Shown here: in pieces, positions 893 through 55,777 of the stretch
How the letters are laid out: each line of letters opens with the position of its first letter
Position numbering within the stretch: the stretch's first letter is position 1
Source of the DNA: Raja brachyura
Lineage: Eukaryota
Direction: 5' to 3'
Length of the DNA stretch: 64,000 bases
Assembly: GCA_963514005.1 (NCBI GenBank)
Contig: OY740791.1
Location: 60,326,001 to 60,390,000, forward strand
Made by a program: the position numbers and the translations under genes
The notes under the pieces: model-generated
What the model saw: the letters and a program-made list of their open reading frames with translations, nothing else
Told to the model about the DNA's origin: nothing
Database searches by the model: none

Positions 893-984
893 GTTTGGAC
901 ATCAGTTGTTAACAATGGCTGCTTGTGTTACATGTTCTTCAGATGATAATCGTGATCTATTTGGATTAATGGTACCCAGTGATG

Positions 985-1330
985 GTGGCACAATGGCACA
1001 GCAGGTGGTACTGTTGCCTCACACCTACAGGAACCGGGGGTTCAATCCTGACCTTGGGTGCTCTCTGTGTGGTGTTTGCGCCTGAGGTCAGAACATGGTA
1101 CTGTGTGGGTGATCTGGTATCCTCCAACACCCTGAAAGATGTACTGATGGGTTAATTGCCTGCTTTACCTTGCCCAGCAGTGCAGGGTGATTGCAACAAT
1201 AATCATATGTATGCAAGAATACATTCTGAGGTGCAGGAAAACTAAGACAGGTGGAATGGGCCTAATGGTCCTGCTCCCTCAAGAGCCAGCATTAGCCCAA
1301 TGGACTAAATGGTCGCTTTTCATGTTATTA
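985..1330 (+). mobile_element. old tRNA-derived SINE (HE1-like), degenerate
   Basis: ggtggcacaatggcacagcaggt ... ggttcaatcctgacc (A/B-box-like head) followed by the typical body. Confidence 0.6.
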
Positions 1331-1369
1331 TAATCTAAGGCAGGTATAAGATAGAATAACAAGGTGTCA

Positions 1370-1466
1370 AACAAGGTCTGAAGAAGGGTCTCGACCCAAA
1401 ACGTCGCCTTTTCATTCGCTCCATAGATGCTGCCTCACCTGCTGAATTTCTCCAGCTTTTTAGTCT
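1370..1466 (+). mobile_element. short PLE-derived insertion with hammerhead-like core and 14-bp TSD
   Basis: ataacaaggtgtca is duplicated at 1356-1369 and 1467-1480. Contains ctgaagaagggtctcgacccaaaacgtc. Confidence 0.75.
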
Positions 1467-2259
1467 ATAACAAGGTGTCAGGTAAGTTTGCAGCATAACT
1501 ATTAGTGTGGCCTGAATCGAATGCTATTAAGGATGAAAAAAATGATAGATTTCAGATTTTTGTTTCTACCTCATCACCCAAAGAAGAACCTTTGTTTATT
1601 AGAGGCTGGAATGATAAACAATTCATGTAGTTAAGCAAAGTTACACGACTGATTTACTTTTTGCACATCCTTCAAAGCCTTTTTAAATATCAGTGGTTGT
1701 GCAATAACACTGTAGATAATTACACTTTCCTTAATGTAACATTAGTCAGTCAACTCAAAGCAAAGATCAAACCAATTAAAGGTTGCTTTGACTATGAATG
1801 AGCCACACATTGACCAGAGCTGCGGATGTAACAGGTCTTTATTTAGCACATGTAGACATGCGGAGAAGAGTGATGCATCATGCAAACTAGAAGAACATAA
1901 TCTCACTTTTCTTTCTCTACCCCCATTCACATTTTCCTTTCTCCTCCTCCTGCTACTCATCTCCCACCACTCCCTTCTCTGAGTCCCCATTTTAATTTTA
2001 TTCCACTTTCCCCCTTTCCCCTCTCCCCTGTCCCCTTCCACCTATATCCCTCCCTCCAGCATTACATTCCACTCGTCCCCTTGCTTCCTTACCTGCTACC
2101 CCTTTGTCTCCATTTCATCTCTCGCATTTGTTACAATCTCCACCCATCTGCCAGTTGCTCCTCATCACTTGTATCCACCTATCACTTGCCAATGTTTGCA
2201 CCATTCAATGCTACCATTTCTTCCCATCTATGCCATCTGTCAGAAGTATGAACAAGGAG

Positions 2260-3015
2260 GCAGATTATTAACTCAATGATTTCAGATTAGGAAAAGGGGA
2301 TGTGCAACGAGACCTGGGTGTCATTGTACACCAGTCACTGAAAGTAGACATGCTGGTACAGCAGGCAGTGAAGAAAGCTTCTGGCATGTTGGCCTTCATA
2401 GCAAAGGATTTCAGTATAGAGTAAGGAGGTCCTTCTGCAGTTGCACAGGGCCCTGGTGAGACCACATCTGTGCAGCTTTGGTCTCCTAATTTGAGGAAGT
2501 GCATCCTTGCTATTGAGGCAGTGCAGCGTAGGTTCATGAGGTTAACCCCCAGGATGGCGGGACTGTCATATGAGGAGTGATTGGAAAGACTGGGCTTGTA
2601 TTCACTGGAATTTAAAAGGATGAAAGGGGATCTTATAGAAACGTATAAAATTATAAAAGGACTGGTCAAGCTAGATGCAAGAAAAATGTTTACTATGTTG
2701 GGGGAGTCCAGAACCAGGGACCACAGTCTAAGAATAAAGGGAAGGCCATTTAAAACTTAGATGAGAAAAAACTTTTTCACCGAGAGTTGTGAATTTGTGG
2801 AATTCTCTGCCACAAAAAGCAGTAGAGGCCAATTCACTGGATGAATTTAAAAGAGAGTTAGATAGGGCTCTAGGGGATAGCGGAATCAAGGGATATGGGG
2901 AAAAGGCAGGCAAGGGTTACTGATTGTGGATGATCAGCTATGATCACAATGAATGATTGTGCAGGCTCCAAGGGCCAAATGGCCTCCTCCTGCACCTATT
3001 TTCTATGTTTCTACT
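2260..3015 (+). mobile_element. CR1 (HER1-like) LINE 3' fragment
   Basis: Degenerate RT C-terminus (QQAVKKA.GML.FI, VQFWSP, TRGHSL) followed by the CR1 3' UTR and a ttctatgt tail. Confidence 0.9.
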
Positions 3016-3317
3016 TTTTTTGTATTAGGGTCCCAACCTAAAAGGCTGTTGTTCCATTTCTCACCACAGATGCTGACTGGCCCGCTCCTCCGGCACTTTC
3101 ACTTTGTTTTTTTTTGCAGAAGGGATATGGTGGGAGAATCTCTTGCAGGATTCTCGTTGGAAATGCTCTCAGGACAGAGTATGCACCAGATGTGAGGTTA
3201 TCCTCTTTTGTGGCAAAAACAGGAGGGTAGACTATTATCTGAATGGTGGCAAATTAGGAAAAGGGGAGATGCAACGAGACCTGGGTGTCATGGTACACCA
3301 ATCATTGAAAGTAGGCA

Positions 3318-3547
3318 GGGTTACACAAAAAGCTGGAGAAACTCAGCGGGTGCAGCAGCATCTAAGGAGTGAAGGAGATAGGCGACGTTTCGGGTCGAGA
3401 CCCTTCTTCAGACTGTGTCTGAAGAAGGGTCTCGACCCGAAACGTCGCCTATCTCCTTCACTCCTTAGATGCTGCTGCACCCGCTGAGTTTCTCCAGCTT
3501 TTTGTGTAACCCTCGATTCTCCAGCATCTGCAGTTCCTTCTTTAACA
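3318..3547. mobile_element. palindromic PLE-derived insertion with 15-bp TSD
   Basis: TSD cattgaaagtaggca at 3303-3317 and 3548-3562. Perfect 97-bp inverted arms at 3317-3413 and 3417-3513. Confidence 0.85.
3419..3446 (+). ncRNA. minimal hammerhead ribozyme-like core in PLE terminal repeat
   Basis: CTGAAGA-A-GGGTC tc GACCC-GAAAC-GTC matches CUGANGA / stem II / GAAA / NUH with a palindromic ACGT stem III. A mirror copy lies on the - strand at 3384-3411. Confidence 0.65.
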
Positions 3548-4472
3548 CATTGAAAGTAGGCATGCAGGTGCAGCAAGCAGTGAAGAAAGCAAATGGCATG
3601 TTAGCATTCATAGCTAAAGGATTTGAGTACAGGAGCAGGGAGGTTCTACTGCAGTTGTACAGGGTTTTGGTGAGACCACACCTGGAGAATTGTGTACAGT
3701 TTTGGTCTCCAAATCTGAGAAAATACATTCTTGCCATAGAGGGGGTACAGAGAAGGTTCACCAGACTGATTCCTGGGATGTCAGGACTTTCATATGAGAA
3801 AGACTGGATAGACTTGGCTTGTACTCACTAGAATTTAGAAGACTGAGGGGGGACCTTATAGAAACACACAAAATTCTTAAAGGGTTGGATAGGCTAGATG
3901 CAGGAAGATTGTTCCCGATGTTGGGGAGGTCCGGAACAAGGGGTCACAGTCTAAGGATAAGGAGGAATTCCTTTAGGACCGAGATGAGGAAAACATTTTT
4001 CACACAGAGAGTCGTGAGTCTCTGGAATTCTCTGCCACAGAAGGTAGTTGAGGCCGGTTCATTGGCTATATTTAAGAGGGAGTTATATGTGGCCCTTGTG
4101 GCTAAAGGGATCAGGGGGTATGGAGAGAAGGCAGGTACAGGATACTGAGTTGGATGATCAGCCATAATCATATTGAATGGTGGTGCAGGCTCGAAGGGCA
4201 GAATGGCCTACTCCTGCACCTATTTTCTATGTTTCTATGTTTCTATCTTCTCCTGGATGTCTGCTTGTTCCAAATAAAGACCTTCTACATCTGCAGCCTT
4301 GGTCTCCGCATGGCTCATTCAAGGTCAACACATAAATCATTCCAAACATTCAAGAAACAGTTTTAATTAATTAGTTAGTTCATTGCAGTTACAAAGCAAT
4401 CAACAAAATTAATCTTACTACATTGTTTCAAATTTATTCAGAATAGAATCTGCATAATAGGTTTCTCTTTGC

Positions 4473-4640
4473 CAGTCAGTCAGTCAATTTTATTTCTATA
4501 GCACATTTAAAACACAACTCTTGTTGACCAAAGTGCTTTACTTTGGTGGAGGTACTAACATTATACAACAGTGGTTCATCGATTAAATACAAACATCACT
4601 ACATACATATAGCCCTCGCTCCGAGGACGTCAAGGAAGGC
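4473..4640 (-). mobile_element. L2-like LINE 3' end fragment
   Basis: (cagt)n tail followed by tttatttctatagcacatttaa...ccaaagtgcttta, typical of fish L2-type 3' ends. Confidence 0.5.
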
Positions 4641-4935
4641 TTTTTTTTTTCCTTTACAAAATGCTTTTAATCAGAACAAACATAGTAACACGATCAGAGA
4701 ATGCCTATATTGGCATTTTACAAATAAAGTTATCAAATTAAAATATTAACATTATTATCAATAATGCATTCGACCTCCTGCGGTGACCAGCGTTTACGGA
4801 AAGCCTCCACAGTTCCTGTGGACACCGCGTGTTCCCTCTCCAGGGACACGCGGGCACGGGCGTAATCCCGGAAAAGGGGCAGACATTCGACTGCTGTGCG
4901 GCCGTCGACTGCCCGCTGCCTGGACCCGTCAAGGA
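4641..4935 (-). mobile_element. Tx1/L1-like LINE 3' fragment
   Basis: Poly-T start on the + strand, then an AT-rich UTR and a GC-rich ORF2-like C-terminus (FRKRWSPQ on the - strand). Confidence 0.5.
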
Positions 4936-5184
4936 AGGCTTGGGAGTAGAGATGAGTTTTAAGTCTCGTTTCTCTTTACCTTGTGACTTGTGAGATGAAG
5001 GATACCCCAATGAAATATATAAATATGTTATATTACTGCCAATTATATGCCTGGCTCTTCTCCTGGTTGTTAGTTTTTAACTTTAATTGAAGTCAAGAAT
5101 GTTGTTCAACTATATTTGAATTAAATAAGATCATGTACGATAAGCCAATGATTGAAAACAATGGCTAGAAAGGTTTTGTTAAAA

Positions 5185-5595
5185 CCATATAAACCATATA
5201 ACAATTACAGCACGGAAACAGGCCCTCTCGGCCCTTCCAGTCCGTGCTGACCATTTATTTTCCCCTAGTCCCATCTACCTGCACTCAGACAATACCCCTC
5301 CATTCCCTTCCCGCCCATATACCTATCCACTTTACTTTTAAATGTTAAAATCGATCCTGCCTCCACCATTTCTGCTGGAAGATCATTCCACACAGCCACC
5401 ACTCTCTGAGTAAAGAAGTTCCCCCTCATGTTACCCCTAAACTTCTGTCCCTTAATTCTCATGTCATGCCCTCTTGTTTGAATCTTCCCTACCCTCAATG
5501 GGAAAGGTTTATCCACATCAACTCTGTCTATCCCTTTCATAATTTTAAAGACCTCAATCAAGTCCCCCCTTAACCTTCTGTGCTCCAAAGAATAA
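5185..5595 (-). mobile_element. CR1 LINE 3' fragment
   Basis: ORF 5265-5753(-) contains YSLEHRRLRGDLIEVFKIMKG...TRGH...FFTQRVV. Confidence 0.9.
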
Positions 5596-5823
5596 AGAAT
5601 AATTTCCAAAGAATTCCAAAGAATATTTTCCCGAATATATTTTGATGAAAAAATGGCGTAAGAGCTCCACTGGAAAAGATGTCTGTGCACTTTATCCTGC
5701 AACTGATCATGAGTACATTTTGCATCCTTTAATTCACAATGCATAATGCACAATGCTTGAGAGATTTCAAAGTAATAAACAATATTTAGAAGATATTATC
5801 TAAAATTAGTTCATATTTTCCAG

Positions 5824-10624: not shown

Positions 10625-10822
10625 AGCAGGTCAGATAGCATCTCTGGAGAAAAGGAATAAATTACATTTTGGGACAAGACCCTCCTGCAGACTGAAGAAG
10701 GGTCTCGACCAAAACATCACATATTCCTTTTCTCCAGCGATGCTGTCTTACTGGCTGAGATACTACAGCCTTTTGTGTCTCTCTACGGTGTAAACCAGCA
10801 TCTGCAGTTCCTTCCCACACAT
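10625..10822 (+). mobile_element. palindromic PLE-derived element, degenerate
   Basis: Inverted half-copies around ctgaagaagggtctcgacc at 10692. Confidence 0.65.
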
Positions 10823-16016: not shown

Positions 16017-16334
16017 TCATGCTAACTTCACATTCTCTCTTTCATCTGAATTACAGCTCCCAGAATGTATAACATTTGCTGAGGGGAAAAATTCTTGGCA
16101 AGATGACTAAGAATCAAAGTAGTTAATTTAACAACTGCAGTAAATGGTTTAGGGAGAATTAGGACTGTGTTGGTTGTTCAGCCATCTTCACTGGATCATT
16201 GTTTGCTAATCTGATGCCTAAGGAGTTCAGAATTGGTTTCCCAAAAGACCGCCATCATGTGGTCAGCAGGAAATGACGAATAAAATGATAATGTACGCAT
16301 TCATTTAAGGCTAATGAACTGTAACAAATAGTGT

Positions 16335-16555
16335 TTAAGAAAGAACTGCAGACATTGGAAAAATCAAAGGTTGACAAAAATGCTGGAGAAACTCTGCGGG
16401 TGAGGCAGTATCTATGGAGCGAAGGAATAGGTGACGTTTCGGGTCGAGACCCTTCTTGAGACACACACAGGGCCTCGACCTGAAACATCACCTATTCCTT
16501 CGCTCCATAGATACTGCCTCACCTGCTGAGTTTCTCCAGCATTTTTGTCTGCCTT
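16335..16555. mobile_element. palindromic PLE-derived insertion with TSD
   Basis: taacaaatag(t/c)gt at 16322-16334 and 16556-16568. Inverted arms surround an (ac)n spacer. Confidence 0.75.
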
Positions 16556-22634: not shown

Positions 22635-23005
22635 TTGAAGATCGACACAAAATGCCGGAGTAACTCAGTGGGGCAGGCAGCATCTCTGGATGGAAGGCAT
22701 GGGCGAATATTCGGGTCGAGATCCTTCTTCAGATTGAGAGTCGGGGGAAAGGGAGACACAGAGGTAAGGAAGGGTAATGTGTGAAAACGAGACATCCTTG
22801 ACCTTCCGTGATCTACATCTCTTTTGATGTCTCCTTTTCGCACATTACCCTTCCTAATCTTTGTGTCTCCCCCTCCCCCGACTCACAGTCTGAAGAAGGA
22901 CCTCGACCCAAAAAGTCACCCATTCCTTCTTTCCAGAGATGCTGCATGTCCCGCTGAGTTACTGCAGCATTTTGTTTCCATCTAGCATCTGCAGTTGGTT
23001 CCTAC
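22635..23005. mobile_element. palindromic PLE-derived element in the presumptive slc34a1 3' UTR
   Basis: Imperfect inverted arms at ~22647-22796 and ~22826-22975, with degenerate hammerhead cores. Confidence 0.75.
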
Positions 23006-31222: not shown

Positions 31223-31390
31223 CTAAGTCTGAAGTACGGTCTCAACCCGAATTACTAAGTCTGAAGTACGGTCTCAACCCGAAATGCGCCTATTTCCTTC
31301 GCTCCATAGATGCTGCCTCGCCAGCTGAGTTTCTCCAGCATTTTTGTCTACCTTTGATTTTCCAGCATATCCAGTTCCTTCTTAAACATT
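31223..31390 (+). mobile_element. PLE terminal repeat with a duplicated degenerate hammerhead core
   Basis: ctaagtctgaagtacggtctcaacccgaa occurs twice, followed by gatgctgcc...ctgagtttctccagc. Confidence 0.7.
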
Positions 31391-37261: not shown

Positions 37262-37354
37262 CTGGAAAGGTTGGACATTTTTGGATACTCTCTCTCTTTA
37301 CTATTGCACCCAGAATGGTGGCACACTGCCCAAAGAAGGAGCTTTGTCTAGACG

Positions 37355-38246
37355 GTTACACAAAAAGCTGGAGAAACTCAGCGGGTGCAGCAGCATCTAA
37401 GGAGCGAAGGAGATAGGCGACGTTTCGGGTCGAGACCCTTCTTCAGACTGGTCAGGGATCAGGGAAACGAGAGATATAAACGGTGATGTGGAGAGATAAG
37501 GAACAATGAGTGAAAGATATGCAAAAAAGTATTGGTGATAAAGGAAGCAGGCCATTGTAAGCTGTTTGTGGTGTGAAAATGAGAAGCTAGTGCGACTGGG
37601 GGGGAGGGGGGGGGAGATGGAGAAGGAATGTCAGGGCCAGAGGGCTGAGGGAGAGGTGGGGGGGAGGCAGTCTGGGTGAACAGAATTGAGAAAATTCAAT
37701 GTTTAAGCCCAGAGGATGCAGACTCCCCAAGCGGAATATGAGGTGCTGTTCCTCCAACTTGCGGTGTTGCTCACTCTGGCCGTGGAGGAGGCCCAGGACC
37801 GAGAGGTCGGATACGGAGTGGGAGGGGGAGTTGAAGTGCTGAGCCACCGGGAGGTCGGGTTGGTTATTGCGGACCGAGCGGAGGTGTTCGGCGAAACGAT
37901 CGCCCAGCCTCCGCTTGGTCTCACCGATGTAGATCAGCTGGCATCTGGAGCAACGGATGCAGTAGATGAGGTTGGAGGAGGTGCAGGTGAACCTCTGTCG
38001 GACTTGGAATGACTGCTTGGGTCCCTGAAAGGATTGGATGGGGGAGGTGAAGGGACAAGTGTGGCATCTCTTGCCCGGGAAAGTGCCCGGGGAAGGAGTG
38101 GAGCGGGAGGGAAGGGAAGAATTGACGAGGGAGTTGCGGAAGGAGCGGTCTTTGCGGAAGGCAGACAGGGGGGGAGATGGGAAGATGTGGCGAGTGGAGG
38201 GGTCACGTTGGAGGTGACGAAACTGGCGGAGGACTATCTGTTGTAA
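37355..38246 (-). mobile_element. Penelope-like element (GIY-YIG endonuclease C-terminus plus terminal repeat) inserted in the L1 inter-ORF region
   Basis: The - strand encodes GETKRRLGDRFAEH...VAQHFNSPSH...KLEEQHLIFRLGSL. TSD ctttgtctagacg at 37342-37354 and 38247-38259. Confidence 0.88.
37419..37446 (-). ncRNA. intact minimal hammerhead-like core in the Penelope terminal repeat
   Basis: Reverse complement reads CTGAAGAAGGGTCTCGACCCGAAACGTC, in the same sense as the GIY-YIG ORF. Confidence 0.65.
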
Positions 38247-48947: not shown

Positions 48948-50110
48948 ATAAGAGATTAGTATATAAACTTAAAGCATACGGCATTGGGGGTTCAGTATTG
49001 ATGTGGATAGAGAACTGGCTGGCAAACTGGAAGCAAAGAGTAGGAGTAAACGGGTCGTTTTCACAATGGCAGGCAGTGACTAGTGGGGTACCGCAAGGCT
49101 CAGTGCTGGGACCCCAGCTATTTACAATATACATAAATGATCTGGATGAGGGAATTGAAGGCAATATCTCCAAGTTTGCGGATGACACTAAGCTGGGAGG
49201 CAGTGTTAGCTGTAAGGGGGATGCTAGGAGACTGCAAGGTGACTTGGATAGGCTGGGTGAGTGGGCAAATGTTTGGCAGATGCAGTTTAATGTGGATAAA
49301 TGTGAGGTTATCCACTTTGGTGGCAAAAATAGGAAAACAGACTATTATCTAAATGGAGGCCGATTAGGAAAAGGGGAGATGCAGCGCGACCTGGGTGTTA
49401 TGGTACACCAGTCATTGAAAGTAGGCATGCAGGTACAGCAGGCAGTGAAGAAAGCGAATGGTATGTTAGCTTTCATAGCAAAAGGATTTGAGTATATGAG
49501 CAGGGAGGTTCTACTTCAGTTGTATAGGGTCTTGGTGAGGCCACACCTGGAGTATTGCGTACAGTTCTGGTCTCCAAATCTGAGGAAGGACATTATTGCC
49601 ATAGAGGGAGTGCAGCGAAGGTTCACCAGACTGATTCCTGGGATGTCAGGACTGTCTTATGAACAAAGACTGCATAGACTCGGTTTATACTCTCTAGAAT
49701 TTAGGAGATTGAGAGGGGATCTTATAGAAACTTACAAGGTTCTTAAGGGGTTGGACAGGCTAGATGCAGGAAGATTGTTCCCGATGTTGGGGAGGTCCAG
49801 GACAAGGGGTCACAGCTTAAGGATAAGGGGGAAATCCTTTAGGACCGAGATGAGAAGAAATTTTTTCACACAGAGAGTGGTGGGTCTCTGGAACTCTCTG
49901 CCACAGAGGGTAGTTGAGGCCAGTTCATTGGCTATATTTAAGAGGGAGTTAGATGTGGCCCTTGTGGCTAAAGGGATCAGGGGGTATGGAGAGAAGGCAG
50001 GTACGGGATACTGAGTTGGATGATCAGCCATGATCATATTGAATGGCGGTGCAGGCTCGAAGGGCCGAATGGCCTACTCCTGCACCTAATTTCTATGTTT
50101 AATTTCTATG
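48948..50110 (+). mobile_element. young CR1 LINE, 5'-truncated, with uninterrupted RT C-terminal ORF
   Basis: 338-aa ORF 48998-50014 contains SGVPQGSVLGPQLF, SKFADDTKL and LVRPHLEYCVQFWSP, followed by the 3' UTR and tail. Confidence 0.95.
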
Positions 50111-53029: not shown

Positions 53030-53250
53030 TGTGTAGGAAGGAACTGCAGATGCTGGTGTACACTGAAGATAGACACAAAGTGCTGGAGTAACAGTGAGAC
53101 AAGCAGCATCTCTGGATAGAAGGAATGGGTGACGATTCGGGTCGAGACCCTTCTTCAGACTGAACGTGCGTCTCGACCTGAAACGTCACCCACTCCTTCG
53201 ATCCAGAATTGTTGCTTGTCCCGCTGAGTTACTCCAGCATTTTGGCTGTC
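53030..53250. mobile_element. palindromic PLE-derived element
   Basis: ggaactgcagatgctgg...cgggtcgagacccttcttcagac followed by the inverted half tctcgacctgaaacgtcacc. Confidence 0.75.
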
Positions 53251-55494: not shown

Positions 55495-55777
55495 GTACGG
55501 AGAAGGTGCAGATCCTGGTTAAAACCAAAGATAGACACAGAAAGATGGAGTAACTCAGTGGGTCAGGCAGCATCTCTGGAGAAAGGGAATAGGTGACATT
55601 GCAGGTCGAGACCCTTCTTCAGACTGAGTGGAGAAGGGAGGAGTACATCTTCAGGGTAGGCATACCTTGAGGAGATTTCGCAGTGGGGCAGATGAAATGT
55701 GTGGAAAGGAACTGCAGATGCTGGTCTAAACCGAAGATAGACACAGAAAGATGGAGTAACTCAGTGTGTTAGACAGT
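55495..55777 (-). mobile_element. PLE terminal repeat, partially tandem-duplicated
   Basis: aagatagacacagaaagatggagtaactcagtg occurs twice. tagatacttg flanks both sides. Confidence 0.7.

Follow-up and report, generated by a model that had tools for sequence, protein, structure and literature searches.

A mirror-shaped Neptune-type stub in an SLC34-family intron of Raja brachyura, probably built by priming from both cut target strands

The palindromic insertion at positions 3318–3547 of the window (the whole 64,000-nt stretch of Raja brachyura DNA analysed here) is best explained as a non-coding stub of a Neptune-type Penelope-like retrotransposon, the mirror shape of which was likely made in one insertion event by priming from both cut target strands; we put the probability of this reading at roughly 0.7. 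Two-strand priming taken by itself is held with much the same confidence, and the further step, that both strands were primed on one RNA, falls slightly short of an even chance. The locus is ordinary, one dead stub among thousands, and carries no sign of a host function.

The insertion comprises 230 bp and is flanked by an exact 15-bp direct repeat (3303–3317 and 3548–3562), which bears out an earlier note on this DNA that had described an insertion of this size with an exact 15-bp target-site duplication. It is asymmetric: an inverted arm of 96 nt and a 3-nt centre are followed by an arm of 131 nt, the last 34 nt of which have no mirror. The 97-bp arms claimed earlier are found at 3317–3413 and 3417–3513, 100% complementary around the 3-nt centre, but the arms inside the insertion measure 96 nt, because one partner of the 97th pair is the final base of the left target duplication; the symmetric description also omitted the unpaired 34-nt piece at 3514–3547, which is the diagnostic Penelope tail. 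Two bases of the junction equal element positions -1 and -2 on the minus arm, perhaps by chance, and one base is extra. The features of the locus, with +1 denoting the first base of the element monomer, are as follows.

893–5823, plus strand: 4.9-kb SLC34-family intron containing the insertion, delimited by the flanking exons
3190–4247, plus strand: older LINE 3' fragment hit by the insertion (right end approximate)
3303–3317, no strand: target-site duplication, left copy (15 bp; direct-repeat search)
3318–3413, minus strand: inverted tail-less arm, element +1 to +96, ending at the upstream one of the two family 3' ends
3382–3413, minus strand: identical hammerhead motif, minus-strand copy (descriptor match)
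3414–3416, no strand: head-to-head junction (focal sequence compared with long copies)
3417–3547, plus strand: full arm, the first 131 nt of the Neptune-type element monomer (pseudo-LTR/5' leader)
3417–3448, plus strand: minimal type I hammerhead motif, sense copy (descriptor match; features from PMC4209133)
3514–3547, plus strand: 34-nt tail, absent from the other arm; the fold of single-arm RNA is predicted to pair its end with the hammerhead core
3548–3562, no strand: target-site duplication, right copy
37351–37900, minus strand: longer copy of the same family, with GIY-YIG C-terminal coding end, 3' UTR and tail-less unit

The insertion is intronic because SLC34-family exons on the plus strand bracket it (697–892 and from about 5824); another host exon gives a weak Pfam Na_Pi_cotrans match (E 0.0035, below cut-off). 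The earlier assignment to an slc34a1 intron is retained as an intron of an SLC34-family gene, and the paralogue, A1 or A2, is left at family level. Both flanks of the interrupted LINE fragment, which we take to be CR1/HER1-like, match one other copy in the window (49300–49427 and 49413–49615), and the overlap of the two matches is the 15 duplicated bases.

Judged by its sequence, the focal arm corresponds to the 131 nt with which a young Neptune-type element begins, and lies ahead of its reading frame; the stub itself holds no ORF. In long copies, the arm unit is preceded by a 3' UTR and by an ORF that encodes a reverse transcriptase (RT), a C-x4-C-x2-C linker and, at the C-terminus, a GIY-YIG domain. 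The Pfam scores are E 8.5e-5 for RVT_1 and E 5.5e-4 for GIY-YIG, both under the cut-off, and the Cys-rich, zinc-finger-like linker between RT and endonuclease was read in the long-copy translations. Full monomers of ~4 kb occur in head-to-tail tandems (pseudo-LTRs), each starting with the arm unit (L246, L247 and L253; period 3.9–4.05 kb), and the element ORF begins about 170 nt past +1. The Neptune-type assignment is made from domain order, linker motif and tandem layout, with the linker defined as in the accessible text of PMC8557442.

The family is large. Exact genome matches number 23,719 for the first 43 nt of the arm and 44,618 for a 20-mer near +95, and 3,385 head-to-head palindromes carry exact stem II motifs on both sides; each of these searches returned 0 in the reversed control. 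Copies have two fixed 3' ends, at about +95 and about +131, and very often start at -2 to +3. Within the window the 131-nt arm has 22 matches, several of them forming older head-to-head pairs; four such pairs, from related families, lie at 16332–16548, 53037–53244, 10637–10814 and 22645–22975, the last with a 155-bp centre that contains an inverted stretch of the element's 3' UTR. Elsewhere, a 3.8-kb tandem repeat at C4:117237483–117286353 has a unit carrying an element mini-copy and is not a full-element array, and two internally deleted mini-copies (L244:1458–1798 and L249:1076–1638) run from +99 round to +98, circularly permuted at the upstream RT start site.

The hammerhead motif itself is real, any cleavage by it being putative. 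In the sense arm, the core occupies 3419–3425, followed by an extra A at 3426, stem II at 3427–3430/3435–3438, GAAA at 3439–3442, a palindromic 4-mer at 3442–3445, a predicted cut after 3446 and a stem I of 2 bp. Core, stem II, GAAA, 4-mer and cut site all lie where they had been placed before, and the motif is rightly read as a minimal type I hammerhead from the terminal repeat of a Penelope-like element: the descriptor, which gives 226 matches in 943 kb and 0 in the reversed control, matches both focal arms, and the core boxes, the extra base between 9 and 10.1, the G10.1-C11.1 pair and the palindromic 15.2/16.2 are all present. The suspicion that stem I is weak was justified, since helix I has 2 bp (G-C and U-G; U-A in older families) instead of 4–5 bp; a 2-bp helix I is reported for Drosophila virilis Penelope (PMC4209133). 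Scoring against hammerhead models, as suggested in the earlier note, was done with an Rfam scan of the insertion, which returned 13 matches at E ≤ 10. These are generic hairpin matches; no hammerhead family is among them, and no match reaches a gathering score.

Comparison of the young family (102 tailed copies) with older families (>12% diverged, 83 copies) shows a different majority base at 0 of 30 ribozyme positions and at 21 of 101 positions downstream (p 0.004). The ribozyme stretch is unchanged between families and has therefore been conserved by active lineages, although overlapping promoter or protein-binding signals could also be the cause. Among young inserted copies there is no excess conservation of the core (0.986, against 0.983–0.995 downstream) and decay is even, so that the excess proposed as a check exists between older and younger families and is absent among young inserted copies. 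Stem II is nearly invariant between families; one one-sided change, U-A to U-G, occurs in 3 of 86 older copies, and the remaining changes are of the decay type.

In the predicted fold of a single 131-nt arm the native stem II has a probability of 0.00, because positions 4–12 are predicted to pair with the end of the tail (young-family probabilities 0.91–0.99; z -2.15). In older families only pairs 8–13 persist and no compensatory change was seen. The core–tail pairing is a lead only; if it forms, the ribozyme of the young family would be switched off in cis by pairing of the tail with the core, not by the palindrome. At 31226–31388 (plus strand) of the window, a full arm is preceded by a tandem repeat of the unit's first 33 nt, which span the hammerhead core.

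The 5' ends of the copies point to the end of a template. Among 66 solo copies anchored at the 3' end and not selected on the 5' end, 30 start in -6 to +5, 7 in +6 to +76, 5 in -100 to -7 and 24 further upstream. Such a wall on the upstream side of the ribozyme would be more in keeping with the end of a template than with stalling at a structure. The base before +1 is G in 11 of 17 copies (p 0.007), and G is also the last base in 7 of 8 added stretches, with no G excess before -1 (5/12, p 0.32); many copies begin at -1 or -2, and the start site is thus not one base. An extra G at the cDNA end is the signature of cap copying, and the excess observed is what copying of a cap would give. We take the surroundings of +1 to have the initiator-like look of an RNA start site. 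No pile-up of 5' ends was seen at the ribozyme cut site, where 2 of 49 internal starts fall in +30 to +33 against 3.0 expected, in a sample mostly selected on intact 5' ends; this fits a template that had not been cut. In Drosophila Penelope, transcription also starts in the pseudo-LTR, 46 bp ahead of the intron (PMC2377424), and de novo Penelope-like insertions in an alga are likewise very short, with a median of 128 bp (PMC9977147).

Two other interpretations of the 5' region were discarded. A splice origin, with the triplet before the core as 3' splice site and the focal centre as first exon, fails because no upstream sequence is common to the short copies, and the focal centre is found again only among matches selected by the query; a shared 5' boundary that seemed to lie at -631 resulted from a truncated reference copy. 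Separately, several short tandems (window 55535–55764, minus strand; L035/L037; L027; L231; L232) consist of a unit, the following 100–150 nt of element 5' sequence, a few added bases and a second unit, and look like template jumps after run-off.

For the mirror shape we propose the following series of events. The element RNA would start at the hammerhead; the RT-endonuclease would nick the two target strands 15 bp apart, and of these strands one would serve as primer at +95 and its partner at +131, probably with one and the same uncut RNA as template. The two cDNAs would extend to, or towards, the 5' end of the RNA and would then be joined head to head via short homology or a few added bases. 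In vitro, a related protein, that of Anolis Poseidon, cuts and extends both strands and has two internal start sites flanking the tail, on mostly uncut RNA (PMC11167929). The fullest version, in which an RT-endonuclease dimer primes both strands on one capped, uncut RNA at the tail-bounding sites with run-off at the first base of the hammerhead, is put forward tentatively, at a little under even odds. All of these steps are derived from end-mapping of dead copies, in samples that come mostly from the first 29 Mb of one contig and of which two of three were selected on an intact 5' part.

The composition of the palindromes carries the argument. The first 50 contain 35 different junctions, and 38 of them have a target duplication, mostly of 13–18 bp with a peak at 14–16 bp; with so many junctions and their own target duplications, each palindrome was therefore made afresh at insertion. 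This tells against an independent miniature element, MITE-like or retrozyme-like, copied whole from a master palindrome, since 35 junction forms in 50 palindromes leave no fixed internal structure. Several top genome matches do carry the focal junction, but these were selected by the query; the junction is found with both alleles at +44 and in none of the first 50 palindromes, and the 14–16-bp duplications and the one-sided tail match the parent retroelement. Three loci (C1:3814903, 15587529 and 21207952) share a longer junction together with a private allele at +46, and maybe were copied as a unit or inside a larger repeat. Taken together, copying from a master palindrome is very improbable. 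A second regularity is the single tail: 57 deduplicated young pairs comprise 51 tail/tail-less, 1 tail/tail and 0 tail-less/tail-less pairs, with 5 left out for a short arm, so that exactly one tail is present in 51 of 52 full pairs where the proportion of tailed solos (20/66) predicts 42% mixed pairs.

One tail per pair, and the alleles shared between arms, are also accounted for by self-priming as proposed in PMC3846280 and PMC8557442, in which the strand folds back on an antisense template or on one cDNA and endonuclease resolution strips the tail from one side. The commonest junction, a 7-nt near-palindrome, could fold back, and the lengths of the symmetric junctions (15/49) fit fold-back and two-strand models alike. 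Against this stands the extent of the arms: in 12 of 49 pairs the tail-less arm extends at least 3 nt (up to 54) further 5' and only its partner has the tail, so that neither arm contains the other; in 5 of 49 it is the tailed arm that extends at least 3 nt further. Pairs whose arms each hold unique sequence need two cDNAs, because a fold-back copy is a subset of its template. Furthermore, the central base of the symmetric junctions comes from either arm, 6 to 8, as fits two cDNA ends annealing with one mismatch, whereas fold-back of the tailed strand gives only one; overall, the 49 junctions divide into 20 with a homology of at least 2 bases, 22 with added bases and 7 blunt ones. Self-priming is accordingly regarded as improbable. 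A second alternative keeps the priming of both strands and assigns it to two separate RNAs, held by an asymmetric protein dimer and perhaps paired via the palindromic stem III. Two templates are the simplest source of two cDNAs that both span +1 to +95, the related protein is predicted to be dimeric (PMC11167929), and the tail-only inverted pieces predicted by collision with the first cDNA are rare (2 of 117 tail-anchored arms start at +91 to +104, one of them with an inverted partner). Short and long arms almost never mix, though: 30 of 31 short arms have a short partner and 10 of 11 long arms a long one, i.e., 1 mixed pair in 42 arm views (one row looks mis-assigned and one is maybe a local duplication), where a hand calculation with 35 long arms in 108 gives an expectation of about 44%. 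At the 5' end it is more frequently the tailed arm that falls short (12 versus 5), as expected if it has to displace a first cDNA, and for the best co-fold a stability of -23.2 kcal/mol is predicted, against only -6.3 to -12.7 kcal/mol for the hammerhead-like dimer. Two RNAs are thus considered unlikely, if a good deal more plausible than fold-back.

For priming of both strands on one RNA, the remaining evidence is allelic. Minor alleles common to both arms number 19 in 51 pairs, where 5,000 permutations gave a mean of 2.3 and a maximum of 8, and shared alleles and matched arm lengths together favour both primers on one region of one RNA. Allele sharing leaves a single RNA molecule unproven, because the same pattern could come from conversion between the arms once inserted, or from each cell having a single active source locus. 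Two unusual arrangements were seen among the paired copies: L043/L044 (C1:1207538–1207773) has a tail-less and a tailed arm head to head with 150 bp of captured unrelated sequence between them, and L050/L051 (C1:1532451–1532697) has a pair of long copies, one with and one without the tail, that lie tail to tail with about 20 bp between them.

The earlier note had read the palindrome as a self-silenced ribozyme, and had suggested this as a possible reason for the tolerance of an intact core in a host pre-mRNA; on this reading it is kept because its antisense arm shields the pre-mRNA from cleavage. The hairpin is real as a prediction, and the notion of a read-through transcript locked in it is supported: the insertion strand folds at -205.9 kcal/mol (shuffle mean -67.2, z -30.6; matched by none of 200 shuffles), and whichever strand is transcribed, the antisense arm comes first. 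The ribozyme region is also conserved between element families. The claim that an intact core is tolerated because it is self-silenced finds no such backing. In 572 kb between same-strand sushi-domain exons (eight regions, each assumed to lie within one gene), unpaired copies number 85 sense and 87 antisense, those holding the ribozyme region 60 and 48, young ones 8 and 11, and descriptor-intact cores 12 and 10, a small set with a 95% interval of 32–76% sense. Palindromes make up 90 of 262 arms (45 palindromes) in the gene regions and 34 of 100 in a gene-blind sample of the first 100 anchored arms of contig C1, an equal share between two counts that differ in methods and ages. The 572-kb intragenic sample thus holds no sign of purging of unprotected sense copies or of palindromes being favoured in genes. 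In the same sample, 3' ends of the host LINE family are 33 sense and 44 antisense, a possible weak bias.

The lone arm, with its predicted loss of native stem II, speaks further against a need for shielding, as does the report that lone minimal hammerheads showed no detectable cleavage in vitro (PMC4209133); and the palindrome is the usual insertion geometry of endonuclease-positive Penelope-like elements (PMC3846280, PMC8557442). Retention for self-silencing is therefore given hardly any credence. Selection for it is not supported, and the block of the ribozyme fold by the hairpin in the host transcript would be incidental; inactivity is predicted for single arms too, and these appear to be tolerated in both orientations.

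Insertion structure and hammerhead motif are already known in the literature, and the present analysis adds the intron-orientation test, the pair-composition counts and the predicted core–tail pairing. Two-strand priming can be compared with LINE-1 twin priming, in which a cDNA is primed from each of two target strands and the pair is joined through short homology, giving an inverted junction. There, two non-overlapping parts of the RNA are copied, whereas here both cDNAs span the same 95 nt and a palindrome results. The following comparisons refer to the accessible text of the sources named. Endonuclease-positive Penelope-like insertions (Pen2a_Av, PMC3846280; PMC8557442 Fig. 2) likewise show an inverted, 5'-truncated copy head to head, a target duplication and a junction palindrome, with a 30–40-bp tail on one side (PMC8557442), in agreement with the 34-nt focal tail. 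They differ in that here there are only two leader copies of 96–131 nt, no ORF and thousands of examples, and in that the target duplication is 15 bp instead of 8–10; the junction data presented here argue against the self-priming explanation given for them. The family resembles the Neptune clade (PMC8557442) in RT, Cys-rich linker, C-terminal GIY-YIG and tandem ~4-kb monomers, and differs in inserting into other repeats and mixed sequence with clear target duplications. With metazoan Penelope-like minimal hammerheads (PMC4209133) the motif shares the core, the extra base before stem II, the G-C closing pair and the loopless palindromic stem III; here stem II has 4 bp and stem I 2 bp, and the motif seems to be the first 32 nt of the RNA, with almost no stem I strand left. 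As in Anolis Poseidon in vitro (PMC11167929), two internal RT start sites bound the tail, both target strands are extended and uncut RNA is used, but the ORF starts inside the hammerhead in Poseidon and about 170 nt after +1 here; the main text of PMC11167929 does not derive head-to-head palindromes from its two start sites. The literature searched, mostly openly accessible papers, yielded no two-strand priming model, RNA-start reading or paper on this family.

Intact minimal hammerhead motifs thus lie in intron sense strands of this genome with no visible sign of purifying selection; this suggests that any cleavage of host pre-mRNA by them stays below a harmful rate. The family forms a large natural record of Penelope-like integration, a step that the in vitro study describes as not yet validated (PMC11167929), and its junctions distinguish between fold-back and two-strand priming and yield sharp predictions for the existing in vitro assay. 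If both strands are indeed primed by a dimer on one capped, uncut RNA, with run-off at the first base of the hammerhead, a single step would account for the inverted head-to-head repeats, for the tail being one-sided and for tens of thousands of 95- and 131-nt stubs, and would replace the antisense self-priming model.
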